The notes: generated from the sequence alone by a model not told the origin. A DNA stretch of 64,000 nucleotides from a virus (IMGVR_UViG_3300008267_000012); one strand, 5' to 3'; counted from the first letter of the stretch, positions 7,252-60,046 are shown. Numbers and translations are program-made.

Positions 7252-10200
7252 TTATTCATTAAAGTAGTAATATATTGATTTAATGTTTTGAGATGTAGAA
7301 CCGCTAGGACAAGCTGTACAAATAACATCAATTCTATACCAATTATTTAAAGTCGTTGGTTTAGGGGTTAATCTACTGAACATTTTATTTAGTCGTTCTT
7401 GTTGTGTAAATCTTATTGTTCCATCAGGAATCTCATCATTTTGGAATCTTGCAATTGGTGTAGGGTTTACTGTTAATTTTTTAACATAGAAATCTTCAAG
7501 ATATTCATTATTTGCATAAATTGTAGTTGCGACTTCATTACCATTACTATCAACACTAGTTGATGTTGAATTTTCTAATTTATATAATAAAACTCTATAT
7601 TTCGTTAAAGGACAAGAGGATAATAAATCAAAATTTAAAATATCTGTAAATGGTTCTATATTAAAATTATTAAGTGGAATACATGGTCTAGGATTTAATT
7701 TAACTTGTACAAAATTTGAATTTTGAAGAGGATATGAAACATTATTTGCAGCACTATATGCTCTTAAAATATATGAATACGCACCTGGGTTAGGTTTTTT
7801 ATCTTTTATTGAATCAACCTGTAAAAAACAATTATATTGTTGTGTAATCTGTACTCTTTTCTTGAAAACAAAAGGATTAGAAGTATTTGATTGATTTTTT
7901 TCATAAACATCCACGAAATCTATATTATTTAATTCATCAGGTTTAGGAGAATTAACTTCAATATATAAATTATAATTACCATAATTAAAATCAGATACAT
8001 CACTTAATTGTGGTATTTGTCCGTTTGGTGTTAAAGAATCTGAATTTCTAACATATAATTTAATAACTCCAAGAGGTACGGTACATGTTCTACAAATAGC
8101 TACACTAGTTGGTTCAGTAAATTCAACAGTAGGATTGTCAAGAATACTACTATATCTAAGACGATATAAATGTAAACCATCTGGTATATTTGTAAGATTG
8201 AAATTATAAGAACATGTTACGTTATAATTATAAAATTTAACATTAGTTGGCATTGCAGGTGTACAATTTGTATATGTTAAGGTTTGTCCTACATTTTGCC
8301 ATGTAGTATCAGATTCTCCTGTAGGTGTTGTTACAATTGTACCTTTTTGTAATACGAAATTCTGAATATTTGACTTAGCAAAAAATGTAGTTTTTAATGA
8401 AAGATTACCATCAAAATTAAAAGCACTATCAGGAAAAAATATTGGTTTTCTTTTAGGTAACCTTTTTTGATATGTTGTAACACTTGTTGTTATTGTTTGT
8501 GGTTCTGTTTCATTAAAAATATTACCATTTATATTTGCTGTATTTAGATTTTCTAAAACAGCCTCTAAATTATATTGATTTCCAGGTGTTGTTTGAAAAG
8601 ACCCTTCTGCAAGTATAGGACCTACAAATGTACCATCCGCTTTTTTAATTTCATTATCATCTATACTATATGTTTGTTCTGTAATACCTGTCTTTAATAA
8701 TTGTCTAGTATTATCTGGTCTAATTAAATTAATTGTATATCTATAAACATTATTTGGTATTGGTGAAGTTAATTTCCAATTACCTACTCTATCTTCAGGG
8801 TCAACATTTGGATTCAAAGGTATAGTATCATTTACAGCATTAGTAATTTCAAGTGTTGGGTCTCCTCCTTCACATAATTCTAATGGAATATTTCTTCCAC
8901 TTAATATTTCCATAGAACCTAAAACTAATGAACTAGCATATAAACTAGAAGAAATATTTTTATAAACAATATCAAATTGTAAACTTCTACAATCATCAAA
9001 ATTTCTTATATCTAATTTTATATCAGACCAATCAACTGTATTTTTATAATATCTATTATTGATAGGACTTCTTAAATATTCTGCCATAGGCTTATGGTAT
9101 ATTTTAATGGGTTCTATTTCTCCTGTGTATACATTTTTTGTATATCCAGGAAACCACGCTACTGTTCCTATTGGCATTGGTACGCTATCAAATTCAATAG
9201 GTGAGTTAAAATAATGGTTTAATACATAACCTGGTCTTATTAATCTTTGTGTATTAAAATAACCAGGTGTTAATTCACCATTATTAGTTAATGTATAATT
9301 ACCACTACCAGTGCCTTCAAATTGTTCCGCAGGGTCACCAAATCTATGAAATTTAAAATGAGTTTTATTTTTATATGATGACATATCTTTTAGATTTCCT
9401 TCAAAAACTAAACTTCTCCTTAATGTACCATTTTCAGTTACACCTCTTGCCCATATTTCTATCTTATCTGCACCAAAATTTTGACCTGCTCTTATATTAG
9501 CACTCCATCTCATGCTCTGCGCTCCTGTTGGTGCATAATAATAAACAATACCTGTATCGGGTACAGTAAAATATGAATAACTTAATTTAAACCTTAAATA
9601 GTTATTTTGATTGTCATCATTAAAATATAAAGGTGAACGTGCTGTATCTGATGTACCTTTTCTAAAATTTGTTAAACTAGCCCAATCAGGTAAGGATTTT
9701 AGATTTCCAAATTCATTATTAAGATAATCAGTAGCTTTATAATTACGCTTACGAGTTTCACCCCAATAATCATCTCTTATAGCCTGTTCATTATCAAATT
9801 GTACATCATTTGTTCCCCATAAATAACTTAAAGTCCAAAAATCATAAGTTTTATCAATTCTAGTTATTGGGTCATACCAATTAATATTAAAAGGAGGTGT
9901 TTGAATTATTGGTCTTAATCTATACCATTCACTACCTTCTGAAAAAATACCAGGAAAAACTCTATTTGCTCTAGTTCTATTTATCCATATATAATCTCTT
10001 TCATGAAACCAACTAGAAGAATGCGCCCATGCTTCTGGACCTTGTCCAAGCCATGTATTTGAAGCATCGTTTTGCCATGTTTCATTATACCCATAAGTAC
10101 TTCTAGCACCTAAATCAATAATTTTGTTAGTTGCAAATAATCTATCTCTACCATAAAAATATTTTATTGGTGACTTAGCATTTGATGGTAATCTTCCACC

Positions 10201-39696: not shown

Positions 39697-42600
39697 TTAG
39701 TCGTTTGGTATGAATGTTATTTGATTAACTTCATGGTATACTACACCTGCTCTATTTATTGCATATGCTCTAGCATATATATAATTACCAAGTTCATTAT
39801 TAAAATCAACATTATATGTACCACTACCTATTATATTACCAAATATATTACCAAAATTTAGTTTATTATCAGCAATTGTTGGATTTGGTGTCAATGACCA
39901 AACAATACCAAACTCTGTAACTGTTGAACTACCTGAACTTGCTAATGTAACATCAAAATCAACTGTACCATTTCCATTTACCGTATAATCATCTAAATAG
40001 ACAGTTGGTTTAAATCCAACATAACTTTTTATTTCTATTGTTGTATTAAATAATAAACCATCATAATTATAATTATTTGCCCCATCATATGCACTAGCCG
40101 AAAGATAAACAAAATCATCAATTTTACTTTCTGAATAAATAGCTGAAAAAAGTGATAGAGATACAAACGGATAAAAATCATAAGGTGTTAATTGTGAAGT
40201 AACAATAGATGTTTTTTCTCTTGGGAATGTTTGATTTCCACCACTAAAATATGCACCATATGCACCTTCTCCACCAAATGGATTAAGTACCCAAACAATT
40301 TCATCATCAAAACTATTTTCTAAAACATTAACTACTAGCGTTGGTGCTTCTACTGTTAATAAAGAACCGTTTGACCAATTTGTTGGATATCTTCCTGTTG
40401 CTACAAATTGTTCTTCTGTTTGATTATTGGTTGCTCCAATATTTAAGAAATCATCACCTGCTACATAAGAAAGTATTTTGTATGTTTCTCCAACAATTAA
40501 TCCTTGATATGGTAAAGATGTTATGTTTTGTGGTGGTATGTGTGTTAATAATGCTCTATATGTTCTATAACCATTATCAAATCTACCTTCTACATTTACA
40601 CTATTTTCGTTAATGTAGAAAATATCGCTTTTATTTTCATATGTACCATTACCAACAACCATTAATGAATCAGTATTTCCTGATTTATTAAATTTACCTG
40701 ATGCATGTTGATAATCCTTTGTTGTTATTGTTCCCAAACCTTCAGCATGTGAATAATTACCTAATGTTAGTGTACCACTACCTTCTGTGTGCGAACCTGT
40801 ACCAAGAGCCTGTGTTGCTATACCTTCAGCATGTGATGCATCACCAATTGAGTAAGTAGCACCTCTTGGATTAATATTGTATGGCAAATAAATATAAGAA
40901 GAACCATTCAATGTTAAATTATCAAATACTACGGTTGTATATCCTGACTCAAATGTTGATGCTGATATTGTAGCTATAACTCCACCATAAGTATTACTAT
41001 CCTGTCTATCATCAAATATGATTGGACTACTAGCTACGAAAACATCTGTTAAGTCTTGCGTTTCATTTTCATTTAATACTGCAATACCATTTACTACATT
41101 TGTACTTCTATATCCTCTAGCACCTGCTAAATTCATTATACCTTCTGTATGTGATGCCATACCAGCTGCAATTGCACCACCCATGCCTGTAGAACCTTCA
41201 GCATGGGAATAATCACCAATTGATTGTGTATTATAACCTTCTGAATGTGACCCTGTACCAATTGCTCCTGTACTATCGCCTTCAGCATGTGAATTTGAAC
41301 CAAATGTTGTTGTTCTATATCCTTCTGCATGTGAATTTGAACCAAATGTTTGTGTTTCACTACCTTCAGCATGTGATGCAAATCCAAATCTTTCATAATT
41401 ATTTCCATCGGGCCATGTTTGCTCATTTTCTATTCTAGAAAATCTTGGATTATAAATATAAATATCTTCACCAATTAAATATGATGAAAATGCTGAACCT
41501 GCTGTTATAAATGTATTAGTACCATCAAAACCTAGTGTTGTTGACCCTAAATTATTATATTCAATAGTTGTTTGAGTTTTATAATAGTATTTTAAATCAC
41601 CAGGATTAAGATTGTAAAAAGATATTGAATTTGTTAAATCACCAAAACCACTATCTAATCTTAAAGTTGTTGCATCAACTACATTCGCAGGAATTGCATT
41701 TATACCTGCTTTTGTATTTTCACCTTCAGCATGTGAATTATCATGATTAGCTTGTGTTTCAGAACCTTCAGCATGTGATGCAGTACCTGCTGCTTGTGTT
41801 ATTACACCTTCAGCATGTGAATGATTACCTAATGCAGCAGTTTTTCTACCTTCTGAATGTGAATTATTACCAATTGCAACAGTAAAAGAACCTTCTGAAT
41901 GACTGTAATAATAATTATCAGAATCTAATCTAAAAAGTACACCAATATCGTTTAAATTACCATTTAAACCACAAAATACATTACTACTAATATTTGATGC
42001 ACTTCCTAATGTCATTGTTTTAGCAGTATAATCTATGGATTTAATATATGTTCTTGTCAATTGATTATAATTTCCACCTGCACTTCTAACATAAGCAACA
42101 AGATTACCTACATTAAAGTTTGCAGTATTTGTAACTGTGATAGTTTCAGTATTTCCATCAACTGCTGTTATATAAGTATAGTAAGTTGGTGTAAATGTTG
42201 CACTACCTTCAGCATGTGAACCTTCACCTAAAGCAAATGTTTCATAACCTTCGGCATGTGAATATACACCATGTGCCTCTGAATAATATCCTTCAGCATG
42301 TGATGCATAATTATATGCTTTTGTGTTACTACCTTCGGAATGTGATGCAAATCCATCTGAAAATGTTGAATCACCTTCAGCATGTGAAAATCCTCCTATT
42401 GCCATCGTTCCTATACCTTCAGGATGTGAACCTTCACCTAAAGCTATTGTAAATGCACCTTCAGAATGTGAACTCTCACCTCCTGCAATAGTAAAGTATC
42501 CTTCAGAATGTTGATTATTAGTGAATGGAATTATATGAGTTGATTCAAGTGAAGCGCAAGCAATTAATGCTTCAGTTGTATTTATACTAGTATTTTGAAG

Positions 42601-43851
42601 ATATATTGTATATGTCTGTGCTGATGGAATATATGTTGTTGATGAGATTGAAAAATAAGAACGACCATATTCATCATCATAAGCTGAATCATCTAATATA
42701 ATATATTCTCTATTATCTTTTTCTATAATTATAAAATCATTTTGTTGATTTGAATCAATATTTTCTATGGTGATTGCACCATTAATAATACTTGAACTAT
42801 AAAATGCTCTTAAACCTGTTTGAGTATATCCACCTTCAGCATGTGAATAATCACTAAGTGCATTTACACTTACACCTTCAGCAGTAGAATATGTACCTAC
42901 TGTGCTTGAACCAAAACCTTCAGTAAAATAATAAGTTGTTTCTAAAGATGTTGAAAAAACAAGTATTGATTTATCGTTATCAATATCATAAATTATATCC
43001 GTTATGGTTGGTAAATCATAATAGTATTTATTTAAGCTAAAAGAATCAGGTCCATTTGAAATATAAAAACTAGTTGTTTGAATTGGTAATTCAGGTATTA
43101 AACTTGAAAAATCACCATTTAATGTAAATGCTGATGTTGTAGATGAAAATAAACTTGGTGTTATAAACTGATTATTATATGAAGAATCTGTATAACTAAA
43201 TTCAAAATAATTAATAGAACCTGAACCTATAATATTTACTGCTGTACCTGTATAAACTGCAAAGTCAGAAGCTTGATTAAAACCACTACCACTTATAGTA
43301 CCTCCACTTGAAGGTCCAAATGACCAATTAAGATAATGTCTTTCATAAACAGGTAATGTTTGTCCTGATGGTGGTCCTGCAATAACTTTACCATTAATTT
43401 GCCAAGCATTACCAATACCAAACATTTCAGAAATCTGAATTGTTGCACTATTTGATGCATTACCTGCATATGTTATTTGTAATAAAGCATTTTTAGGGGA
43501 TTGTTGTAATGCAGCCCACCAAGTATTTCTACTTGTAGATGATGTATCACCGTTATTTACTTTAATTTTTAATAAATTATTTGGATTTAATGTATTACTA
43601 GTTAATCCTGAAAATAATTCAATATTAAAATACATATCACTTGGAGTAGGTTTATTACCAGGTGTTATTGGTTCACCTAATAACCAAATATATCCTTGAT
43701 TTGAACTTGTTCCTCCACTACTTATTACTGTTGTTTCGCCAACATAAATTGTTGTTGCACAAAGTACACCAACAAATTTTACATCACTATTAATTTCTAA
43801 ACTTGTATCAGGAGTTGCTGTTTGTATTGAATTTACCTTTAGTACGCTCAT
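39697..43851 (-). CDS. Tail fibre/adhesin with YadA-head-like (Hep/Hag) SHAEG repeats
   Basis: Four blocks of 14-aa xSH(A/S/T)EG repeats separated by unique segments; MSVLKVNSIQ phage-fibre start. Confidence 0.8.
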   Translation of the reverse strand: MSVLKVNSIQTATPDTSLEINSDVKFVGVLCATTIYVGETTVISSGGTSSNQGYIWLLGEPITPGNKPTPSDMYFNIELFSGLTSNTLNPNNLLKIKVNNGDTSSTSRNTWWAALQQSPKNALLQITYAGNASNSATIQISEMFGIGNAWQINGKVIAGPPSGQTLPVYERHYLNWSFGPSSGGTISGSGFNQASDFAVYTGTAVNIIGSGSINYFEFSYTDSSYNNQFITPSLFSSTTSAFTLNGDFSSLIPELPIQTTSFYISNGPDSFSLNKYYYDLPTITDIIYDIDNDKSILVFSTSLETTYYFTEGFGSSTVGTYSTAEGVSVNALSDYSHAEGGYTQTGLRAFYSSSIINGAITIENIDSNQQNDFIIIEKDNREYIILDDSAYDDEYGRSYFSISSTTYIPSAQTYTIYLQNTSINTTEALIACASLESTHIIPFTNNQHSEGYFTIAGGESSHSEGAFTIALGEGSHPEGIGTMAIGGFSHAEGDSTFSDGFASHSEGSNTKAYNYASHAEGYYSEAHGVYSHAEGYETFALGEGSHAEGSATFTPTYYTYITAVDGNTETITVTNTANFNVGNLVAYVRSAGGNYNQLTRTYIKSIDYTAKTMTLGSASNISSNVFCGLNGNLNDIGVLFRLDSDNYYYSHSEGSFTVAIGNNSHSEGRKTAALGNHSHAEGVITQAAGTASHAEGSETQANHDNSHAEGENTKAGINAIPANVVDATTLRLDSGFGDLTNSISFYNLNPGDLKYYYKTQTTIEYNNLGSTTLGFDGTNTFITAGSAFSSYLIGEDIYIYNPRFSRIENEQTWPDGNNYERFGFASHAEGSETQTFGSNSHAEGYRTTTFGSNSHAEGDSTGAIGTGSHSEGYNTQSIGDYSHAEGSTGMGGAIAAGMASHTEGIMNLAGARGYRSTNVVNGIAVLNENETQDLTDVFVASSPIIFDDRQDSNTYGGVIATISASTFESGYTTVVFDNLTLNGSSYIYLPYNINPRGATYSIGDASHAEGIATQALGTGSHTEGSGTLTLGNYSHAEGLGTITTKDYQHASGKFNKSGNTDSLMVVGNGTYENKSDIFYINENSVNVEGRFDNGYRTYRALLTHIPPQNITSLPYQGLIVGETYKILSYVAGDDFLNIGATNNQTEEQFVATGRYPTNWSNGSLLTVEAPTLVVNVLENSFDDEIVWVLNPFGGEGAYGAYFSGGNQTFPREKTSIVTSQLTPYDFYPFVSLSLFSAIYSESKIDDFVYLSASAYDGANNYNYDGLLFNTTIEIKSYVGFKPTVYLDDYTVNGNGTVDFDVTLASSGSSTVTEFGIVWSLTPNPTIADNKLNFGNIFGNIIGSGTYNVDFNNELGNYIYARAYAINRAGVVYHEVNQITFIPND
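40700..42900 (-). repeat. 42-bp-period coding repeats (CCTTCAGCATGTGA core on the plus strand)
   Basis: Roughly 20-25 SHAEG-type units visible in the protein. Confidence 0.8.
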
Positions 43852-44704: not shown

Positions 44705-47700
44705 TTATTTAAGTTTTCTAAAGCCGTATCTATCAGAGAAGTAATTATAGTTCTTTTTAATTTCAGGGAATGGTAAATCAATATCATACATTCTAAGTCT
44801 TTGTATCTTTCCATAGAATGAACCATCAAAATTCTCTTCAATAACAGATTTAATTCCTCTATTGTATAATATTTCAGTACTGATAGTATAAGAAGTTGTT
44901 CCTGTAAGGTCAACTACATCATATTCACGGAATGAAATATCATCAAAGTAAAAGTTATAGTAAGATGTTATTGCTGTTGAATTTTCAAACTTAATAATAG
45001 GTGTATAAGATGTATATGCATTTATTTCGCTTGGTGTTACAAAATCAATTGATAAATAAGTCCATGTATTTGCAGAACTAATTGTATTATAAGTTGTAGT
45101 TGTTAATACCTCAATTTCAGAATCTAATGGATTAGTAAAATCAAAATAAATACCCTTTTCTTCATTTGGTAAAAATCCATTATCATCATAAAAATAACCA
45201 CTTAATATATATCTCTTTTTAGGTTTTATTTCTAAAGGATTTTCAAATATTAATAAATTATTTGTTAATGAAGTAAATGTGGTTGCTGTTGATGATGTAA
45301 TAGAATCAGGTATTAAATTATACTCACTAAAAGTATAGTTATCAATAAAGAATTTATAACTTTCTGTTATTGCTGTAATATTACCTACTTTTATAACAGG
45401 AGTATAAATTGTAAATGATGATAATACTTCAGGTGTTGTAAACTCAACACTTAAATCAACCCAAGCATTTGATAAAACACTATCATTATATGTGATTGAT
45501 GTTAAGATAATATTTTCACCTGATAATGTAGGTTCAAAATCAAAATAAATATTCTTTGATTCTCCACTTAAATAACTATTATTATCGTAGAATTTAGTTG
45601 AAACTGTATATTTTTTAGCAGGATTAATATTTATATCTTCAAATTTAAAGATATTATCCGTTAAGGATGAATATGTTAAGCCTGTAACAATATCTTGTTC
45701 ATATAATTTAAAATCATCAAACTTAAATCCATAAATTGATGGGAAGCAATCACCAAAATCAACATTTACACCTAATGTATAAGAAGTTGCTCCTGTGATT
45801 ATTGATGGTGTTTTAATTTCTGTTCTAAGTGTATACCAAGTATTGAAAGAATCTGAATTTGTGTATGCTGTTTTTCCAAGAAGTTCATGTTCTGAATCTA
45901 AATTCAAGAAATCTATATCAACATACTTGTATGTACTTGTAAAACTAAAGAAATCATTAAATCTTGTTTCAAGAATATATACTTTACTTGGATTTATTGG
46001 TTTTTGGTCAGTAAAAGTAAAGATTGTATTAGATGGTGAATTAAATGTATTACCTGTAAGGTCGGTATTTCTTACATTTAAAATAAATGCAGATGGATTA
46101 CCAACTTCACTAAATGGTAGTGTTTCTAATGTTCCATCAACTAAATCAATTGTAATACCTGATGTAATTCCAACTGTATGTCCACTATCTTCAAATTCAC
46201 CAAAATTAGCATCATTTAATGTTAATGTGTTTGATGTATATTGAGTTATAACAAGTGGTGGTAATGCAAGTTTAAGTGAACTATTTCCTGAGAAATATTG
46301 CTCTGTTGATACTTCTAGTATTGAATTTATTGTTTCGCTTGATACATTTTCAGTTGAGGATTCAAATGTTTTACTATAGCCTGTATTATAAACATAACTA
46401 AATCCTGTTAATGAAAGCACAGGTAATAAATTATATTCTTCAGTATAAATATCATCAAAATAAAACTTATAACTTTGATTTATACCTGATGGATTATCAA
46501 CAAATACATATGGTGTATATGATGTGTTACCTGTTATTTGTGTTGGTGTATTAAATTCAATTTTTAAATCATTCCAAACACCTGAAGTTGTTGATGTTGT
46601 GTAAGTTAAGGATGAAACAAATATATGTTCAGAATCTAATGGTGGTAAGAATCCTATATAAACACCTTTTGTTTCTCCTGTATTGTAACTATTATCATCA
46701 AAAAATTTAGCACTAACAGCATATTTTTTATTAATTTCAGGTGTAAAACTTGATAATGTCAATAATGAATTTGTTATTGAACTAAATGTAAAAGATGTAA
46801 ATCCACTTAAAGGATAATTTGTAATTGTAAAATTATCAAAATAAAATTTATAATTTGAACTTATTCCACTCTTATTATATAATTTTGCAACAGGAGTATA
46901 TGTTGTAGAGCCTGTTAAAGCACTAGGAGTTATAAACTCCAATGATAAATCAACCCAAGTTTGAGAAGAAGTTGTAGTAGTATATGTTAAAGATGATATA
47001 ATTATATTCTCAGAGTCTAATCCGTTAAGAATTTCTAGTATTACACCCTTTTCTTCATTTGGTAAATAACTATTGTCATCATAAAATTGAGTATTTAGGG
47101 AATATTTTGTATCGCTTGTTATTGTAAACGAACTAAAATTAACTAAAATATCTGTTGTTGATGACAATGTAAATGAAGTATAAGTATCAATCGTTTCATA
47201 TGATAAATAATAGTTATCAAAGAAAAAATTATAACCTTGATTATTAATAGTTAAAGATGTAACAGTCTCACCGCTTGTTCCACCTGTAAAAATTAAAGTT
47301 GTTGATGATGGTTCAGCTAATTCATTTTCATAATCAATACTTGTTGAAAATTTATAAATACTATTACCAGTCATTATTGGTGGTGTTTTAAACACATATC
47401 TTAATTTTGTCCAAGTATTTGCTGATGTTGTAGATGTATATGTTTCAGCGGATAAAATAAGAATTTCAGGGTCTAATGTAGGAATCGTATCTAAATAAAT
47501 ACTTTTATTTGAACCTGTCCAAGTTTGTGCAATATTTTGTGTATATGCTGAATAATTAATTACATCTCCACTAGCATTTGTTCCTGTATAAGCAGTTACA
47601 AATACAGTTTGACCTGTAGCCGTATAGTCATATGTGTAACCTTCATAATAATAATATGCGTTTGGTAATAATGTAATATTATTTACAAAATAAAATAAGT

Positions 47701-50700
47701 TTTTATCAATACTAAAGAATGGAGCATAGCTATCTTGTTGTGGATATGGTGCAACTCTAAGACTTACTGAACCACTTAATACAGGATATACTTCATAAAA
47801 ATATGCTGCCGTATTATTTGTGTTAATTCCATTGGATAAAAATTCAAATGTACCACTATTACCATTTGTAATAACATTACCTGTGTAGACAGTAAGACCT
47901 GTAGTTACTGTGATACCTGAAGCATCACCAAATAATTTCAATGATGTTGAACTTGTAAAATATTGATTTGAAAATTGTTCTGTGCTTGATGTTAAAGTTG
48001 CTGCACTTATTTCTGTTGTAAATCCACTTATACTACCTTCAAAATCATATAATATTGTACCTGCTGAAACATATTCATATATTGTTTTAGTGGATGATGA
48101 TGAGGCAGATAAAATTAATGAACTCAATCCTGAAAAAGTTTGAGCAGTTGTTGATGTAATTACGACATCTAAGACATCTGTAGTTACACCGCTAATACTA
48201 GTTTCAAAATCAATTGTATATGAAGAGTTAAAAAAATATGTATAACTTGTTGCATAACCAGTTAAATAGGTTATTGATGTAATTGGGTCAAGAGGTTTTA
48301 ATTTTAAAGAATAATTACCTGAATGTGTAAGTGCTGTGCTTGAGTCTATTATAATATCAATAACATCACTTGTAATACCTGTTATATTATTTTCAAAAGT
48401 TCCATTATCACCATTTAAGAAATAATTTGTATTTCCTGATACATTGTATTGTTCAAATACAAAATCATCAAAAATAAATTTATAATCAATTGAAATACCT
48501 GTTGGATTTACAAATTTAATTACAGGTAAATAACTTGTATTTCCTGTTATTACGGATGGACTTAGAAAGTCTAATTGTAAATCAGTCCAAGTTTGACTTG
48601 GTGTTGTTGTCGTATATGTTAAAGAAGATATAACTATATTTTCAGAATCTAATCCACCTGAGAATGTTAAATAAACACCTTTAGTTTCTCCTGAATTATA
48701 ACTATTGTCATCGTAAAATTTACCTTTGTAAACGTATTTCCTATCAGGAATAATATTTACAGGATTAAATATCAATAAGTTATCACCTGTTGCGCTAAAT
48801 GTAAGTCCTGATGTTGAAATAACAGTTTCTAAAATGCTAGGTGAATATTCAATTACTGAGATTTCATCAAAATAAAATTTATAATCATTAACTAAATCAA
48901 ATATAAAACCAACTTCAATAGATGGTAGATAATTTGTAATACCTGTAATTGCTGATGGAGTTGTAAATTCTAATTTTAAATCAACCCATTTTCTTTTTTC
49001 AACAGTATTGTCATATGTTACTGCTGTTAATACTGTATTTTCAGGGTCTAATCCACCTTGAAAACTTAAAAATACTGATTTGTTATTACCTGTAAAACTA
49101 TTATCATCATAAAACTTAGCAGTATAAATATATCTAGAATTTGGATTAACTGTTATACCTGTTGTACCAAACATTGGTGTTGGTAAAGTATTAATTAATA
49201 ACAAATTATTAGTATCCGATGTGTATGATAATGTAGATGCGCTAGAATTACTTAATTTAAGTGTTGTTTCACATTGATATGGATGGTCAGCACTTATTTC
49301 AAGTAATCCATTATAGACTTCAGTAATTACATTTCCAGCTTGATAAATATCATTTATTAAATTTGTACTTGCACTAATGGTTGTTGAACTAACTACTGTG
49401 GTTGGATTTACATTCATTAATAAGACAGAATTATCTTGAGATAAAACCGTACTAAATAAATTATATAAAACATCGGTAGTTGCACCTGTTGTCGCAGCAC
49501 TAAGAGTATTTGTATCGCCATATTCTATTTGACTCGTACCACCTGTTATTTGCACATCGTATTCATCAAATGTAAAACTATCAAAATATAATTCATAAAA
49601 TCTTGTTCCTGCCGTTAAATCTTCAATTTTTACAGCAGGTGTATATGCCGTTAAACCTGTAATAACTTGTGGAGTTTGAAATTCAAAAATTATATTAGAC
49701 CAGGTATTTGGTAAGTCCTCAGTTGTTAAATATGTATGTGATGTGATTACGGTTATTTCTGAATCTAAATTTTCAATAAACCCAAGAGATATTTCATTTA
49801 TATAACAATTAAAGCTATCATGGTCATATAAATTAGCTGCATAAATATATCTTTTATTAGGATTTATTGAAATTGGTTGTGTGAATCTTAATAGATTATC
49901 TGTTATTGAACTAAATGTAGATGCTGTATAGTCATTATAAGTTAATAATAATGAACCACTTCCTGAATAAACTTGAGTTGAACTGCTTAATAATAAACTA
50001 TTTACTAAATCTGTACTTACATTATTAATTGCGGTTTCAAATGTACCAAAATCACCATCATTAAATAAAGTTTGACCTGTTACTAATGTGTAAGAGTAGC
50101 CACTTAAATTTTCAATACTGTAACCACTTTGATAAATAAAATCTCTACCTGTAATAATATTTTCAGTTACAGTTGCTGATGAGAATGCATCAACATATGA
50201 ATGTTTTAATCCCCAAGTACCCCCACCCCAATTTATTGTATATGGAATTCCAATTTGTCTATCAGCATCAATGCTTAATGGTCTTAACCAAAAGAATTCT
50301 TCTGTGTTATCAACTTCATGAAATAATTTACCATTTACATAAATCTTAAAGAATCCATCTCTTCTTGAAACACAATCAATTAAATTATCACCTTCAAAAT
50401 CTTTAATTTTTTTACAATATCTAAAGGTGGTAACAATATTTGTCCAACCTGTAGTTAATATTGGATTATCACTTTTATATTCAGTTACAAAGCCTGATGT
50501 TACTAAATATCTTAATGATATTGTTTTATCATCGTTGAATTTTAAACCTGCTGCATTATATTCAATATCAGGTAAATAACTATTTGTATCATATGTTATT
50601 TTTGATGTATCATCATTTGCCCCTGAAAATGCAATATTGAATTTATTTTCAGATTTAGCACCTAAATATAAAAAGAAACCATCTGTAAATGAATTAATAT

Positions 50701-51154
50701 TATCAAAAGTATCTTGGTCAATATATAACCAAGTATCTATTGTAAACCCATTTTCTGTTCTATATTTTCCAAGTTGAAAATATTTATCATGTAATTTAAA
50801 ATAAGTGCTTAAATAACCTCCTGATAATTCAAATGAATTACCTTCATTACCTGAATTTGTTGTTATTTGTGGGAATGTAGTATTTCCCTCACCATCGTTA
50901 TATCCTAATCTTTGAAAGATTAAATTTCTATCTCTTCTTGTAAAAGTTTTTGTTTGTGTTAAAGATGTTGCAAGACCAAAATCGTACATTGTTTGACCAT
51001 ATCCTGTTAAAGTAAGGTCGGACAAAATATAATTTTCCCAAAATGTTAAACTAGTTACAGAAAATCCTGCATTATTGTCAAACGACTTTATATTTGAAAT
51101 GTCAAAATCAAATATAATGTTATCTTTGGTAAGTCCTGTATTATTGAATATCAT
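44705..51154 (-). CDS. 2149-aa virion/baseplate protein: LamG-like domain interrupted by nine CBM4/9-like domains
   Basis: FTIDTW, IYVNGKL and NWGGG at the N-terminus; GSFYGKIQRLRMY at the C-terminus; nine FYDDNSY...LDSE...W..L..EF.TP...F.FD units. Confidence 0.75.
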   Translation of the reverse strand: MIFNNTGLTKDNIIFDFDISNIKSFDNNAGFSVTSLTFWENYILSDLTLTGYGQTMYDFGLATSLTQTKTFTRRDRNLIFQRLGYNDGEGNTTFPQITTNSGNEGNSFELSGGYLSTYFKLHDKYFQLGKYRTENGFTIDTWLYIDQDTFDNINSFTDGFFLYLGAKSENKFNIAFSGANDDTSKITYDTNSYLPDIEYNAAGLKFNDDKTISLRYLVTSGFVTEYKSDNPILTTGWTNIVTTFRYCKKIKDFEGDNLIDCVSRRDGFFKIYVNGKLFHEVDNTEEFFWLRPLSIDADRQIGIPYTINWGGGTWGLKHSYVDAFSSATVTENIITGRDFIYQSGYSIENLSGYSYTLVTGQTLFNDGDFGTFETAINNVSTDLVNSLLLSSSTQVYSGSGSLLLTYNDYTASTFSSITDNLLRFTQPISINPNKRYIYAANLYDHDSFNCYINEISLGFIENLDSEITVITSHTYLTTEDLPNTWSNIIFEFQTPQVITGLTAYTPAVKIEDLTAGTRFYELYFDSFTFDEYDVQITGGTSQIEYGDTNTLSAATTGATTDVLYNLFSTVLSQDNSVLLMNVNPTTVVSSTTISASTNLINDIYQAGNVITEVYNGLLEISADHPYQCETTLKLSNSSASTLSYTSDTNNLLLINTLPTPMFGTTGITVNPNSRYIYTAKFYDDNSFTGNNKSVFLSFQGGLDPENTVLTAVTYDNTVEKRKWVDLKLEFTTPSAITGITNYLPSIEVGFIFDLVNDYKFYFDEISVIEYSPSILETVISTSGLTFSATGDNLLIFNPVNIIPDRKYVYKGKFYDDNSYNSGETKGVYLTFSGGLDSENIVISSLTYTTTTPSQTWTDLQLDFLSPSVITGNTSYLPVIKFVNPTGISIDYKFIFDDFVFEQYNVSGNTNYFLNGDNGTFENNITGITSDVIDIIIDSSTALTHSGNYSLKLKPLDPITSITYLTGYATSYTYFFNSSYTIDFETSISGVTTDVLDVVITSTTAQTFSGLSSLILSASSSSTKTIYEYVSAGTILYDFEGSISGFTTEISAATLTSSTEQFSNQYFTSSTSLKLFGDASGITVTTGLTVYTGNVITNGNSGTFEFLSNGINTNNTAAYFYEVYPVLSGSVSLRVAPYPQQDSYAPFFSIDKNLFYFVNNITLLPNAYYYYEGYTYDYTATGQTVFVTAYTGTNASGDVINYSAYTQNIAQTWTGSNKSIYLDTIPTLDPEILILSAETYTSTTSANTWTKLRYVFKTPPIMTGNSIYKFSTSIDYENELAEPSSTTLIFTGGTSGETVTSLTINNQGYNFFFDNYYLSYETIDTYTSFTLSSTTDILVNFSSFTITSDTKYSLNTQFYDDNSYLPNEEKGVILEILNGLDSENIIISSLTYTTTTSSQTWVDLSLEFITPSALTGSTTYTPVAKLYNKSGISSNYKFYFDNFTITNYPLSGFTSFTFSSITNSLLTLSSFTPEINKKYAVSAKFFDDNSYNTGETKGVYIGFLPPLDSEHIFVSSLTYTTSTTSGVWNDLKIEFNTPTQITGNTSYTPYVFVDNPSGINQSYKFYFDDIYTEEYNLLPVLSLTGFSYVYNTGYSKTFESSTENVSSETINSILEVSTEQYFSGNSSLKLALPPLVITQYTSNTLTLNDANFGEFEDSGHTVGITSGITIDLVDGTLETLPFSEVGNPSAFILNVRNTDLTGNTFNSPSNTIFTFTDQKPINPSKVYILETRFNDFFSFTSTYKYVDIDFLNLDSEHELLGKTAYTNSDSFNTWYTLRTEIKTPSIITGATSYTLGVNVDFGDCFPSIYGFKFDDFKLYEQDIVTGLTYSSLTDNIFKFEDININPAKKYTVSTKFYDNNSYLSGESKNIYFDFEPTLSGENIILTSITYNDSVLSNAWVDLSVEFTTPEVLSSFTIYTPVIKVGNITAITESYKFFIDNYTFSEYNLIPDSITSSTATTFTSLTNNLLIFENPLEIKPKKRYILSGYFYDDNGFLPNEEKGIYFDFTNPLDSEIEVLTTTTYNTISSANTWTYLSIDFVTPSEINAYTSYTPIIKFENSTAITSYYNFYFDDISFREYDVVDLTGTTSYTISTEILYNRGIKSVIEENFDGSFYGKIQRLRMYDIDLPFPEIKKNYNYFSDRYGFRKLK

Positions 51155-51207: not shown

Positions 51208-53778
51208 TTAATTTTGTAATTCTATAAAAGAATTTCCATTCTCATCTTTATCAACCATAATAAGGTAATCAGGATTGATTATATCGCCATATGCATGTTC
51301 AATAATTAAAATTTTATCAATATCTTGTTTAACTTTATTCATAAGATTTATAAAGTTAATTGCGTTTCTTTCAGAGAGTTTTCCAAATAGTTCATCAAGA
51401 AGAAGAATATTTGGTCTTGACCTATTATTCATAAATCTTAATGCAAGTCTAAGACAAATACAAGCAAATACTCTTTCCATTCCTGAACCTGAAATAACAT
51501 TTTGAATAATTTCAGGAGTGTCTTTCTTTGACATTTGAAAAAAGAGTTCACTATCAAAGAAAACATTAAAGTCAATATCTTCTGTATATCCTTGAAGATA
51601 CATATTTACTTTTGGAATTAATTTCTTTAATAATGTACTTGGAATGCCTTCTCTGTGAATGCAGTTTTGATATTCTTCTCTGATTAATTCTTGTCTTTGC
51701 TGTTCTAAATACTTTGTAATTGTATCTTTATAGTTTTTAATTTCATTTTCAGCAAATTCAATCTTATATTTAAAATCATTTACTTCTTTTTTCAATGATT
51801 CTTTATCATTTTTAAATTCATTGACTTTTGATTTATATGTATCAATTTTTGATTGAATTTTATTATTCTCTTGAATATAAACTATATTAATATCATATCT
51901 TTTTAGAATATCATTTTTTTGAAAGATTTTTAAGTCAATATTTTCAATATGCATTGGAATATTATCATATTCCTGTTTGAATTTATTTCTTTTTTCAATC
52001 TCTTTAATAATTAATTCAATCTTTGTAATCTTTTCTTTTACCTTAGTGATTGCTACACTTTCTTTTTTAATCTCATCCTCAAAACCTTTTATTAATGACC
52101 TTTTACTTTCAGTCATTAATTCTTTATCTTTAATTTCTTCTTTATATTTATCAATATTTTTATTGATTGCTTTTAAATCTAGTTCATATTTCTTTTTATA
52201 TGACTCTTTTTTAATCTCACCTTTGAATTTTTCAATATTAGATTTTAGTTTATCAACTTTTACTTTGATTGATTCAATTGCATCCTCATCTTTTAAACGA
52301 TTACAACTAGGACAAACTTTACTATCTTCTAATGAGGAAATTTCCCTTTCAATTAAATCAATTTGTCTTTCTAAACCAAGTCTATCATTATCAATTTGAG
52401 AATCAACTTTTGTTATTGCAAGATTTTCTTTATGGATATATCCATTTATTACTGCAATATCATTTGTAATGGTATTAATTTCTTTATTTAAGTCTTTTAT
52501 TTGGTCATTCTTAGAAATTAACCAACCATTGAATGAATTTGATTTTTCCTTTAATGAATTATAAAGTTCTTCATCTAAAACAAACTTATTAAGTTCCTCA
52601 ATTTGTTTTAAAAGGTCTTTTTGTGACCTTTTCTTTTCTTCTTTATCATTAATAAGTTTATTAATCTCATCTTTAATTTGATTAATATTTAGATTCGTTA
52701 ATTTGGAATCAATTGGTTTTAATGTCTTAATTGTATTCTCAACATGAAGTTCACCATTTGAAATCCTTTCATTTAGAGTATTAATTTTATCTTCCCTATC
52801 TTCTATTTGAGTTTTATAATCCTCAATATAAACTTTTGCATCATCAATAAGTTGATTATACCTATCAACAGATATATTTAAAAGACTTTCTTTTTTATAT
52901 TCATTTTTCTTATAGGCTTTGAATACTTCAAGTTTCTTTTCAAATATATCAAGACCAGTATCTCTAAGAATTGAATCTAAGAATTTAGCATGGTCGGTTG
53001 TAAGAATATCATTTAAAGTATCAGCATTAATTAAGGATTTTGTGATAAATTCATCAAAATCCCCAATTGAATGTTCAATTAACTTTTGAGTATTAGTTTT
53101 ATCCTGTTCTGAAAGATTATTTTCATCAATTATCTCACCATTTGAGTCTAATTTATTGAAATAGGTCTTTGTTGAGCATGAGGTAATCTCTGTATGTGTT
53201 TTATCCCATTTTCTTTCAGTTCTTCTTCTAATGGCATAATCTTCACCATTGATTTCAACGATTAACTGAACTTCTGAATAATCTTTTTTGTTATTGTTGT
53301 TGATAAATTTATTATCTCTGTTCTTCTCTTTTTTGAGAGTATCAAAGGTAGTACCATAAAGACCATATGTAATAGAGTTTAAAATGTTTGAGTTATGAAC
53401 TGCAATGTTATTGGCATAATATTCACCAATACCTTCAACTTGAATATCTACTAAGTCAATAGTGGTTTGTGGGCATGTTGAAATTCTAAAAATATTTTCA
53501 ATTCCATCTTTAGTTTTGACTTTAATGAAAGACCATTCATTTTTAATTTCATCAAATGATTTAAAAAGACCTAAATCTGTTCTAATAAGATGGTCTTTTG
53601 AAACGGATAATCTTTTTCCTTTTTCCGTTTCTAATGTCCAATATTGGGAATCTTTTGAAGTGACATCATAGGCAAGAATTTTTGAATACCCACATGGGGT
53701 TTCAACCTCAATGTTTAATTCAAGAAGTAAGTCTTTTAATATTCTAAGATTTTCAATCTTTATCTGTTTCTCTGTCAT
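51208..53778 (-). CDS. sbcC: Split-intein C-fragment fused to the Rad50/SbcC (gp46-like) C-extein
   Basis: IntC ends YYANNIAVHN|SNILNSITYGLYG; coiled coil, CPSC hook, ISGSGMER signature, LLLDE Walker B, IIEH; ATG 53778 preferred over TTG 53802. Confidence 0.92.
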   Translation of the reverse strand: MTEKQIKIENLRILKDLLLELNIEVETPCGYSKILAYDVTSKDSQYWTLETEKGKRLSVSKDHLIRTDLGLFKSFDEIKNEWSFIKVKTKDGIENIFRISTCPQTTIDLVDIQVEGIGEYYANNIAVHNSNILNSITYGLYGTTFDTLKKEKNRDNKFINNNNKKDYSEVQLIVEINGEDYAIRRRTERKWDKTHTEITSCSTKTYFNKLDSNGEIIDENNLSEQDKTNTQKLIEHSIGDFDEFITKSLINADTLNDILTTDHAKFLDSILRDTGLDIFEKKLEVFKAYKKNEYKKESLLNISVDRYNQLIDDAKVYIEDYKTQIEDREDKINTLNERISNGELHVENTIKTLKPIDSKLTNLNINQIKDEINKLINDKEEKKRSQKDLLKQIEELNKFVLDEELYNSLKEKSNSFNGWLISKNDQIKDLNKEINTITNDIAVINGYIHKENLAITKVDSQIDNDRLGLERQIDLIEREISSLEDSKVCPSCNRLKDEDAIESIKVKVDKLKSNIEKFKGEIKKESYKKKYELDLKAINKNIDKYKEEIKDKELMTESKRSLIKGFEDEIKKESVAITKVKEKITKIELIIKEIEKRNKFKQEYDNIPMHIENIDLKIFQKNDILKRYDINIVYIQENNKIQSKIDTYKSKVNEFKNDKESLKKEVNDFKYKIEFAENEIKNYKDTITKYLEQQRQELIREEYQNCIHREGIPSTLLKKLIPKVNMYLQGYTEDIDFNVFFDSELFFQMSKKDTPEIIQNVISGSGMERVFACICLRLALRFMNNRSRPNILLLDELFGKLSERNAINFINLMNKVKQDIDKILIIEHAYGDIINPDYLIMVDKDENGNSFIELQN
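53392..53778 (-). mobile_element. Intein C-fragment (~129 aa, blocks B, F and G, no endonuclease)
   Basis: VETPCG; SVSKDHLI (block B); DLVDIQV (block F); AVHN/S (block G). Confidence 0.9.
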
Positions 53779-54328
53779 TTTCAAGTAATGGAAAAATTTC
53801 AATAATATTATTTACCCTATTGTTATGATTCTCATACTTCTTTTCAGGGTCAAATAAAATAATTTTTGTATTATCAAAAGATAATTCTGATAGTTTAGGA
53901 TTTGCAGTTAGTATATAATCAAAATCATCATCAATGTAGTCTACAAATCTATTGTAGAATCTAATTTCATCAAAATAAAATCCTGCTGAAAAGTTTGATA
54001 TATAGAAAGCAGTTAAGTTTCTAAATTTATGTCCTTCTCTTGATATCATTACTATCTTATACCCATTTTCGGATAGTTCAGGATAAATTTGATTTAACTG
54101 TGCAATCAATTCTTTTGATGGTAATGTTGATTTAGCAAACAATTCATAGGAATATTGATACAAGAATTCTTCTAACTCATTACCTTCAAAATTAAATGAA
54201 AGTAATGGATTGAATGGGTCAATTGGATAACCTACTGACCTATCAGCAAACTCAATTTGATAGTATTGTTGAAATTTTTTGATAAAATCCCTTAAAATTC
54301 CGTTTACTTCTATTGCAAAAGTTTTCAT
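53753..54328 (-). CDS. HAD-like 5'(3')-nucleotidase homologue with a non-canonical motif I
   Basis: AIEVNGILRDF in place of DxDGVLxDF. Confidence 0.55.
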   Translation of the reverse strand: MKTFAIEVNGILRDFIKKFQQYYQIEFADRSVGYPIDPFNPLLSFNFEGNELEEFLYQYSYELFAKSTLPSKELIAQLNQIYPELSENGYKIVMISREGHKFRNLTAFYISNFSAGFYFDEIRFYNRFVDYIDDDFDYILTANPKLSELSFDNTKIILFDPEKKYENHNNRVNNIIEIFPLLENDRETDKD

Positions 54329-58708: not shown

Positions 58709-60046
58709 TTATTTTAAAAATTCAGGTAAATATCCAAGTTTATTTATTATTTCTTCTTCGTTAAATCTAATATTGATTTTTGTTTCGGGATGAACGCATT
58801 TACCAACCTGATTTTCTCCGTAGATTTGAATAATTCCATTCTTATCTGTTAAATCAAGTTCATATCTTTCACCATGCGATTTAAAGTTATCAAGTACAAT
58901 CTTTTTAACTTTCCAATCATAGAATTGATTCTCCACATCTTTTTCAATCAATGATGTTATTTCATTATCAAGTGATAAAACATCCTTTATAAAGTCTTCT
59001 TGATGGTTTTTAGCTTTCAAAAAGTTTATAAACTCCTGTCTTACACTATCATCATTGTTTAAATCAATTGTTTCATCAAATTCTTTAATCTTTAAAGATT
59101 TATTTAGAATCTTAGATTTATCAAATTTAATAGTGGCGAATTCGCCATATTTAGATTCTAAATGTTTCTTAATCTTTTGTTTATTTTCAACATTAAATGT
59201 TGAATATTGGTCCATCCAATGAATCTTAATATGATTATGTTTTCCAACATTTTTAAGTTCAATATCTAGATTTTGATAATCATAATCTTCATTGATATAG
59301 ATATTAAAGTATTTATAATCTGAGATTATTTCTTTCTTTTCAAAAGTTTTTGCTTCAATATCCCATAAAAGATAACCATGAAAAGCATTATCACCTTCAC
59401 CGTAATTGGTACAATATAATGACGATGGGTAAGCAAAAAACTCTCTTCCATTTTTTTGATATGATTGTTGGAGATGTATATCTCCTGCCATTACAATATC
59501 ACCTTTAAAATCAGCAAGAGAAACAATATTACTATCGGTATGGTATTGTCCATTTTGTAGATAACATCCATTAATTGGGTCATGGAAAAGGTCAATATAA
59601 TACTTATTATTATTGCGCTTTTCTTCATTGAATTCAAGCCAAGGGGATTTTCTATCAGGGTGATACCAAACAGCGAAAACAATATTATCAAGTTCAAAAA
59701 AACCTGTTGAATCATAGTAGTGTATATTAGGATTGTTAATAATCTCAACAAGCATCTTGATTGATGACATTCTGTTGAGATTTGATTTCATTATATCGTG
59801 ATTACCATCAATAATAACCACAGGTGCTATCATAGCACAAGAAGTCAAAAAATCTCCTGCAAGGACATTGATTTCATTAAAAGGTTTTACATAGTTGTGG
59901 AATAGGTCACCTACAATTACAATCAAATCAGGTCTGTCCTTGATTAGGGATTTAATTGTAAGACTTGAGATATGTTTTTGCTCTGCTAATCTGTCCAAAT
60001 TATTTTGGAAGTGGATATCAGCAAGATGAGCTATTTTCTGAATCAT
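58709..60046 (-). CDS. sbcD: Mre11/SbcD nuclease fused to the Rad50 N-terminal lobe, ending in a split-intein N-fragment
   Basis: HLADIH, VGDLFH, GNHD, DLFHD, GDIH metallophosphoesterase motifs, then KIVLDNFKSH...IYGENQVGK|CVHPETKI. Confidence 0.92.
   Translation of the reverse strand: MIQKIAHLADIHFQNNLDRLAEQKHISSLTIKSLIKDRPDLIVIVGDLFHNYVKPFNEINVLAGDFLTSCAMIAPVVIIDGNHDIMKSNLNRMSSIKMLVEIINNPNIHYYDSTGFFELDNIVFAVWYHPDRKSPWLEFNEEKRNNNKYYIDLFHDPINGCYLQNGQYHTDSNIVSLADFKGDIVMAGDIHLQQSYQKNGREFFAYPSSLYCTNYGEGDNAFHGYLLWDIEAKTFEKKEIISDYKYFNIYINEDYDYQNLDIELKNVGKHNHIKIHWMDQYSTFNVENKQKIKKHLESKYGEFATIKFDKSKILNKSLKIKEFDETIDLNNDDSVRQEFINFLKAKNHQEDFIKDVLSLDNEITSLIEKDVENQFYDWKVKKIVLDNFKSHGERYELDLTDKNGIIQIYGENQVGKCVHPETKINIRFNEEEIINKLGYLPEFLK
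58712..58798 (-). mobile_element. Intein N-fragment (29 aa)
   Basis: CVHPETKINIRFNEEEIINKLGYLPEFLK directly after Walker A GK, then stop. Confidence 0.88.

Follow-up and report, generated by a model that had tools for sequence, protein, structure and literature searches.

Domain insertions in proteins are mostly single-level, as was found in a survey of 2.7 million domains (PMC13114784), and the extreme recorded there consists of sandwich-barrel hybrid motifs (SBHM) nested six levels deep in the SI3 region of the beta' subunit of cyanobacterial RNA polymerase (PMC13114784). In siphophages, the proteins known as "evolved Dit" carry carbohydrate-binding modules (CBMs) in their loops, and these bind host sugars (PMC7291167). 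The analysis described here deals with a viral DNA sequence of 64,000 nucleotides, IMGVR_UViG_3300008267_000012 (the whole of which is called the window), and in particular with an open reading frame (ORF) that, with its stop codon, occupies 44705-51154 on the minus strand, has no internal stops and encodes a protein of 2149 residues, P0001. The reading favored for this protein, with a probability of roughly three in four, is that whole copies of a CBM-like domain were repeatedly inserted at one loop, giving the topology LamG( D1, D2(D3), D4( D5(D6(D7)), D8(D9) ) ).

Like SI3, P0001 would follow a recursive A1-B1-C-B2-A2 scheme in which members of one small beta domain family are inserted into each other with branching nodes, and both the number of domains (8-12 in SI3) and the depth are similar. 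Unlike SI3, the units are predicted CBM22/CBM4-like jelly rolls rather than SBHM, the tree of domains sits in a loop of a LamG domain, and the protein would be a phage accessory protein rather than a core transcription enzyme. A further difference is that forms with 0, 1, 2, 3, 4 and 9 copies all survive among the close relatives of P0001, where two near-identical proteins differ by the insertion or deletion of one domain. Recursive insertion itself has already been described, and what is new here is the fold, the host protein, the biology and the preserved growth series.

The evolved Dit and Tal proteins (PMC7291167, PMC8540738) share with P0001 the placing of CBM-type beta-sandwiches in a loop of a lectin-like host domain and a presumed glycan-binding role. 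In contrast to P0001, their one or two CBMs are all on one level, and the host is the galectin domain of Dit rather than LamG. No Dit- or Tal-type PHROG or Pfam match was found on P0001 or its relatives. The known CBM modules are contiguous domains appended to enzymes, unlike the units proposed to be nested in P0001.

Two kinds of unit in a balanced order

The repeated element is proposed to be a beta-sandwich of about 165-195 residues with a CBM22/CBM4-type carbohydrate-binding fold, of which the first three strands would form an N-unit and the remaining eight or so a C-unit, the loop that joins the two being able to accept a further complete copy. The LamG loop would hold three such domains, with nesting to four CBM levels, or five with LamG. 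An outer domain could be completed only once all of its guests had been made, and for D4 this would mean that N4 and C9, some 1000 residues apart, have to come together.

The nine C-units of P0001, of about 120 residues each, can be aligned along their whole length and have the motifs N-L-L-x-F, F-Y-D-D-N-S-Y, L-D-S-E, W-x-x-L-x-x-E-F-x-T-P and F-Y-F-D-D in common; the last strand of each (F/Y-x-F-D) finishes at residue 527, 760, 893, 1310, 1437, 1564, 1810, 1935 and 2068. C4 is 177 residues long because it contains two extra loops (about 25-32 residues). The nine N-units, of about 45-55 residues, fall into one pattern when aligned with MAFFT, N-G-D-x-G-x-F-E ... I-T-G-x-T ... S-G-x-x-S-L-K-L. 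In each of the 12 full-length orthologues, a scan with hidden Markov models (HMMs) read N C, then N N C C, then N N N N C C C N N C C C, and last the LamG tail; successive units are joined by linkers of about 6-25 residues. A preliminary description of this DNA, made from the sequence alone, had read nine halves of each kind in an order that balances like parentheses, and the scan bears this out. The features, in window coordinates, are as follows.

50135..51154, minus: residues 1-340, an N-terminal domain of about 125 residues and the first LamG strands, to N-W-G-G-G at residue 309; about 190 relatives
49928..50071, minus: N1, residues 362-409, N-part of D1, contiguous with C1; depth 1; E 4e-8
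49550..49927, minus: C1, residues 410-535, C-part of D1; alignment and HMM scan
49400..49537, minus: N2, residues 540-585, proposed N-part of D2, partner C3; depth 1; divergent; MAFFT, hhalign and mirror-tree
49235..49369, minus: N3, residues 596-640, proposed N-part of D3, contiguous with C2; depth 2; divergent; position, length and T-L-K-L strand motif
48851..49237, minus: C2, residues 640-768, C-part of D3; alignment and HMM scan
48452..48811, minus: C3, residues 782-901, C-part of D2; alignment and HMM scan
48275..48433, minus: N4, residues 908-960, N-part of D4, partner C9, some 1000 residues further on; depth 1; weak in-trans fold
48089..48232, minus: N5, residues 975-1022, N-part of D5, partner C6; depth 2; E 6e-7
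47909..48067, minus: N6, residues 1030-1082, N-part of D6, partner C5; depth 3; E 6e-5
47732..47881, minus: N7, residues 1092-1141, N-part of D7, contiguous with C4; depth 4; found marginally by the independent profile
47201..47731, minus: C4, residues 1142-1318, C-part of D7; two extra loops
46820..47179, minus: C5, residues 1326-1445, C-part of D6; alignment and HMM scan
46439..46798, minus: C6, residues 1453-1572, C-part of D5; alignment and HMM scan
46247..46393, minus: N8, residues 1588-1636, N-part of D8, partner C8; depth 2; modelled with confidence 80-95; CBM22 match over N8..C8
46064..46228, minus: N9, residues 1643-1697, N-part of D9, contiguous with C7; depth 3; modelled with confidence 65-84; inner-domain matches
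45701..46069, minus: C7, residues 1696-1818, C-part of D9; alignment and structure model
45326..45685, minus: C8, residues 1824-1943, C-part of D8; alignment and structure model
44927..45289, minus: C9, residues 1956-2076, C-part of D4; alignment, HMM scan and in-trans fold
44708..44926, minus: residues 2077-2149, the last LamG strands (motif G-S-F-Y-G-K-I-Q-R-L-R-M-Y) and the C-terminus

The N-units were also searched for with an independent profile, built from N4, N1 and the N-parts of other proteins and leaving out N2, N3 and N5-N9. N1, N5 and N6 were recovered with the E values listed, N8 at E 4e-4 and N7 marginally at E 0.098, and N2, N3 and N9 were missed by this HMM. With hhalign against the N-unit profile, N2 was placed weakly (E 2e-4, probability 45%) and N3 had no match, in keeping with the earlier remark that two N-halves of the second block are divergent. 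N2 and N3 are the weakest of the N-units, and what chiefly speaks for them is their position and the length of about 110 residues from C1 to C2; the assignment of N9 is backed by the predicted fold presented below.

The stretch T-x-T-x-F-S-S-x-T had been taken for a linker special to places where an outer domain resumes. This idea was rejected, as the stretch is the first strand of all C-units, C1 included, which directly follows its own N-unit.

The starts of N-units and C-units carry a near-identical motif, T-(G/S)-(F/Y)-T-(F/Y)-(S/T)-x-(L/T)-(T/S)-N-x-(L/I)-(L/I/V). It is seen at the unit starts of P0001 and in two shorter relatives, P0013 (420-440, 672-690, 812-830 and 995-1012) and P0016 (338-355 and 594-612), and in P0013 the starts of N2 and C2 are identical at 9 of 15 residues. 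The motif could be a connector strand at host-guest junctions or a recombination site for copy gain.

D7 (N7 and C4, window 47201-47881) is the most variable domain among the 12 orthologues. The mean pairwise identity of N7 is 45%, as against 65-82% for the other N-units, and in five orthologues an N7 variant about 14 residues longer is no longer seen by the N-unit HMM. N7 and C4 co-vary strongly (r 0.85), and all units other than N7 are 65-84% identical among orthologues.

The LamG frame and the graded series of relatives

With the 1190-residue P0013 as query, 196 relatives were found among 1.84 billion representative proteins, and almost all of them have the tail motif F-D-G-S-F-x-G-x-I-Q-x-L-R-x-Y, either directly past the W-G-G-G loop or past inserts. 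The distance from the W-G-G-G motif to the tail motif grows with the number of units:

Relatives of about 400 residues: no insert; 29-53 residues
Forms of 558-645 residues: N C; 200-280 residues
P0016 (786 residues): N N C C; 435 residues
P0015, P0164 and P0165 (981-989 residues): N N C N C C; 633 residues
P0013 and P0014 (1189-1190 residues): N N N C C N C C; 827 residues
The P0001 group (2145-2164 residues): nine N and nine C; 1800 residues

That the frame is a LamG domain is suggested by the uninterrupted relatives, which resemble viral Laminin_G_3 proteins in their front strands and in their C-terminal G-x-I-x-x-L-R-x-Y strands. One of them, P0027, matched Pfam Laminin_G_3 (PF13385) over profile positions 16-71, the front strands, with 29.5 bits (gathering score 27.6 bits), and the tail of P0042 matched the last 28 profile positions (123-150) below the cut-off, at E 0.0025. 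Neighbors in the ESM Atlas are viral Laminin_G_3 clusters (score 0.97), and a profile of the uninterrupted form gave only a weak tail match in the PDB (E 0.2, residues 176-218 of 227 in 4qvs_A). Unlike these viral proteins, P0001 has its domain split by about 1770 residues, which is why it has no Laminin_G_3 match of its own. Judged from these sequence comparisons, the nine-domain array would occupy a late loop of a LamG domain, much as the preliminary description had placed it, between the start of LamG and its last strands, and in the shorter relatives the same LamG strands are continuous.

Each N/C pair lengthens the span by about 196 residues. In every architecture found (1, 2, 3, 4 and 9 pairs) the counts of N and C are equal and the order is a balanced bracket word, for which the random chance at equal numbers would be 1/2, 1/3, 1/4, 1/5 and 1/10, values that are not to be multiplied since the architectures are related. 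Unbalanced intermediates, NNC or NCC, were not found among the approximately 200 relatives, and a domain-profile search, indexed by words, for longer proteins returned four, two of which were new members of the three-domain form. A comparison with shorter homologues had been proposed as a check on nesting in the preliminary description, and it gave balanced words with 1, 2, 3 and 4 pairs in addition to the uninterrupted LamG forms.

Further evidence comes from two close relatives. The P0013 locus is syntenic with the window (metallophosphoesterase, AAA, KTSC, glycosyltransferase and an SbcC-like ORF, then the P0013 gene), and P0013 is therefore the positional orthologue of the window gene. When compared by BLASTP with P0015 (989 residues), it aligned in two collinear blocks, 1-474 with 1-467 and 677-1190 with 471-989, the latter at 84% identity. 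The 202 residues found only in P0013 consist of one N-unit and one C-unit with short linkers, and they lie exactly between the S-L-x-L and T-Y-S-S-L-T strands of what in P0015 is one unbroken domain. Since the insert is placed exactly at the N|C junction, the split N/C pair of P0013 has an ordinary contiguous domain as its orthologue, and the difference between the two proteins is as predicted for a domain inserted into a domain. An uninterrupted counterpart of the host is thus seen both for this domain, in P0015, and for LamG, in the relatives of about 400 residues. Reciprocal best matches, for the N-unit as well as the C-unit, also link the inner domain of P0016 with the innermost one of P0013.

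It could be argued that halves were duplicated separately and in tandem, N to NN and C to CC, and that the extra halves are degenerate remnants that do not fold. The motif common to N-starts and C-starts could promote unequal recombination, and the innermost N-units are the most divergent, both of which speak for it. The relatives speak otherwise, as NNC and NCC intermediates were not seen, P0013 and P0015 differ by one whole N+C domain, P0016 and P0013 have inner domains that match each other best in both parts, and the units, N7 excepted, are conserved among orthologues at the level given above. Separate duplication of halves is accordingly regarded as highly improbable. Simple unequal crossover between boundary motifs was also considered and rejected, as it would yield unbalanced products and none were seen.

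Some observations on other relatives can be added. P0107, an otherwise unrelated protein of 661 residues, has one contiguous N+C domain. A 447-residue fragment, P0034, contains three C-units resembling C4-C6 of P0001, the last of which resembles the P0107 domain at its end and is followed by a fibronectin-III-like stretch; these likenesses hint at domain shuffling among genes, or at a chimeric assembly. In the single-domain proteins P0041, P0054, P0056, P0060, P0068, P0077 and P0100, the HMM match is split at about position 118-120 by an extra 35-50 residues, and together with the extra loops of C4 this may mark a second permissive loop in the fold.

Predicted structures and the pairing of units

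Two runs of AlphaFold2 (AF2) were made on parts of P0001. In the first, residues 355-905 were modelled with an alignment of the 12 orthologues only, and the mean per-residue confidence, the predicted local distance difference test (pLDDT), was 55, with C-units at 70-85 and all N-units, even the contiguous N1, at 23-30. Because N1 was itself left unplaced, this run is silent on pairing. A whole-protein alignment for P0016 that mixed full-length relatives and fragments was dropped, as MAFFT misplaced tails and fragments. The second run covered residues 1580-1945 (N8 N9 C7 C8) with 79 rows, made up of four N N C C block families and 52 contiguous domains. Here the mean pLDDT was 83.6 and the predicted template modelling score 0.53, with N8 at 80-95, N9 at 65-84, C7 at 88-93, C8 at 91-97 and the N8-N9 linker below 50.

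This second model was compared exhaustively with 48,161 PDB chains. The top match was the CBM22 module 4xuo_B (Z 13.7, root-mean-square deviation (rmsd) 3.1, 142 of 156 residues aligned), and the CBM22 module 1h6x_A followed closely at Z 13.4; each match runs from model residue 7-9 to 366. As C8 has only about 122 residues, the CBM22 match must include N8, and D8 is, in this model, an outer domain assembled from the two separated pieces N8 and C8. The inner N9 and C7 were matched separately over model residues 59..245 by 6zps (Z 10.5, 158 aligned) and 6a8x (Z 10.5, 167 aligned). Structure prediction, which had been suggested earlier as a check, has in this one nest given N8 and C8 as a single CBM22-type domain with N9 and C7 as a separate inner one; the separated halves fold as one domain, by prediction, for N8 and C8 only and with an alignment that favors that pair. 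The model indicates that a split pair such as N8/C8 can take the domain fold with a guest in its loop.

Over CBM22, CBM4, CBM16 and CBM61 structures (4xuo, 1h6x, 4bj0, 2zew and 2xom), the predicted jelly roll of about 150 residues gave Z values of 10.8-13.7 with 135-144 residues aligned and an rmsd of 2.9-3.5, and it differs from these modules in sequence, the identity being 12-18%. The units had been called CBM4/9-like at the outset, and this holds at the level of the fold in the predicted model (the CBM4-2 structure 4bj0_A at Z 10.8) but not for the family, as Pfam CBM_4_9 (PF02018) was not matched, nor was any CBM family at E<=1 for P0001 or E<=0.1 for single-copy relatives; the domain profile matched none of the PDB sequences.

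The first AF2 run, in which C-units were confident and N-units were not, would suit beads on a string, with the C-unit a complete beta-sandwich and the N-units small separate modules or spacers that pair with nothing, and the failure of the independent profile to find N2, N3 and N9 would suit it too. Such an arrangement is nevertheless very unlikely, since N and C are equal in number in six architectures and a C-unit never comes ahead of its N-unit, the N and C of single-copy relatives are always contiguous and jointly match whole CBM22/CBM4 domains, the one-domain insert of P0013 lies exactly at the N|C junction, and the deeper alignment lifts N8 into the 80-95 range and into the CBM22 match.

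The pair farthest apart, N4 and C9, was folded as two chains in trans. The ipSAE was 0.57, compared with 0.00 for the best control, and the verdict was "weak support", with at least 88% contact agreement between runs and a partner pLDDT of at least 62. In the benchmark, 58 of 80 solved complexes passed, and so did 2 of 110 mismatched pairs; those passing at ipSAE <=0.60 comprised only 7 of the 80 and both mismatches. These counts apply only roughly, because custom alignments were used for N4 and C9. Likeness alone may also carry the two halves of a known fold through this test.

Co-evolution was assessed in two ways. By congruence of the N and C identity matrices, the nested pairing falls within the top 12-19% of all 9! 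pairings. Mirror-tree residuals over the 12 orthologues speak for it more clearly, its score being reached by only 637 of 362,880 pairings, and among the split pairs N2-C3 ranks 1st, C3 being the best partner of N2, and N5-C6 ranks 2nd.

These pairings bear on whether the N-units might complete C-units out of bracket order, crossed within the chain or swapped between subunits of an oligomer. Many phage fiber proteins are trimers. N4-C9, N6-C5 and N8-C8 are not mutual best partners in the mirror-tree analysis, and an N-unit docks on a C-unit in trans without a covalent link, though weakly, both of which would fit such pairing. The short linkers (about 6-25 residues) favor a non-crossing topology, the AF2 model joins N8 with C8 and N9 with C7, and the split pair of P0013 is one contiguous domain in P0015, so pairing out of order is considered unlikely.

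Several results weigh against recursive insertion itself. The congruence of the identity matrices is weak, the mirror-tree signal is owed mostly to N1-C1, N3-C2 and N7-C4, all of them contiguous, and N4-C9, N6-C5 and N8-C8 rank only 4th to 6th of 9. Neither the independent HMM nor hhalign gives N2 and N3 good support as N-units, and P0001 itself has no Pfam CBM or LamG match. The C-units folded without their N-units in the first AF2 run, and a C-unit may be largely self-sufficient and hold most of the fold. In the second run MAFFT put all 52 contiguous homologues onto N8...C8, and the outer pairing is therefore partly homology transfer and no independent discovery; the nests modelled amount to one, N8-N9-C7-C8, of two levels only. 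Repeated insertion at one loop, up to four deep, is the reading in best agreement with all of the tests, among them the balanced relatives, the P0013/P0015 insert, the N8-C8 model and the continuous LamG of shorter relatives, and the pairing at depths 3 and 4 would follow by extrapolation from the bracket order.

Genomic setting, likely role and significance

The P0001 gene sits within a long minus-strand series of large ORFs, in sequence of 26-32% G+C, and P0001 is recorded on a contig of 243,803 bases. Full-length orthologues numbered 11 (69-87% identity), P0001 had no usable match in Pfam or PHROGs, and tblastn against 50,697 phage records found none for it. The short relatives had no PHROG match either. 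Directly upstream of the gene is an SbcC-like ORF (51208-53802, minus), 5 kb beyond which lies a metallophosphoesterase ORF (58709-60046, minus), and a helicase is also nearby; a locus with a four-domain orthologue, L001, keeps the same SbcC-like and metallophosphoesterase arrangement. Among 17 neighboring ORFs a Pfam search found a NUDIX domain only, so the role of the module cannot be read from its neighbors, most of which are without a family. A neighbor of 1384 residues (window 39697-43851, minus) matched PHROG 25468, of unknown function, in five separate stretches. At another locus, L002, an ORF at 9170-9940 (minus) that adjoins the 415-residue LamG relative P0027 has a weak precomputed Pfam match to T4_baseplate, the sole pointer found, and a hint at most, to the family being near baseplate genes. 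An opposite-strand ORF of 149 residues (window 45795-46244, plus) lies within the P0001 gene over conserved coding sequence and is probably spurious.

The same fold is found in structures of phage baseplates, tail fibers and tailspikes (9euf_8 at Z 10.0, 8qpg_TC at 9.7, 5w6h_A at 9.4 and 7xyc_A at 8.8), and BFVD tail proteins named CBM-cenC share it. Because of the CBM fold, its recurrence in phage tail structures and the binding of CBMs in Dit loops to the host, the most likely role of P0001 would be that of a multivalent glycan-binding protein of the virion. Each domain may bind glycans, and the protein on the virion would then be a multivalent adhesin with doubly tethered domains in a branched cluster and not on a flexible string. 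It can also be imagined, tentatively and with a good deal of doubt, that a permissive loop and a shared boundary motif allow whole copies to be gained and lost recursively by recombination in a self-similar, "fractal" adhesin, with D7 domains as the fastest-evolving specificity tips on a conserved, doubly tethered scaffold.

If the topology is true, P0001 would be among the deepest nestings within one domain family, with nine copies, four CBM levels and five with LamG, and the first found in any phage protein or with a fold of carbohydrate-binding type. The growth steps have been kept in close relatives, down to the gain or loss of one domain at 84% identity, which opens the evolution of domain insertion to stepwise study. 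Folding of the outermost domain would have to wait for about 1000 residues and five other domains, making the protein a natural test of co-translational folding, and for protein engineering a CBM jelly-roll loop that would repeatedly accept whole domains is of interest. For the biology of the phage, a branched, multivalent glycan-binding architecture is suggested, unlike tandem strings of CBMs.

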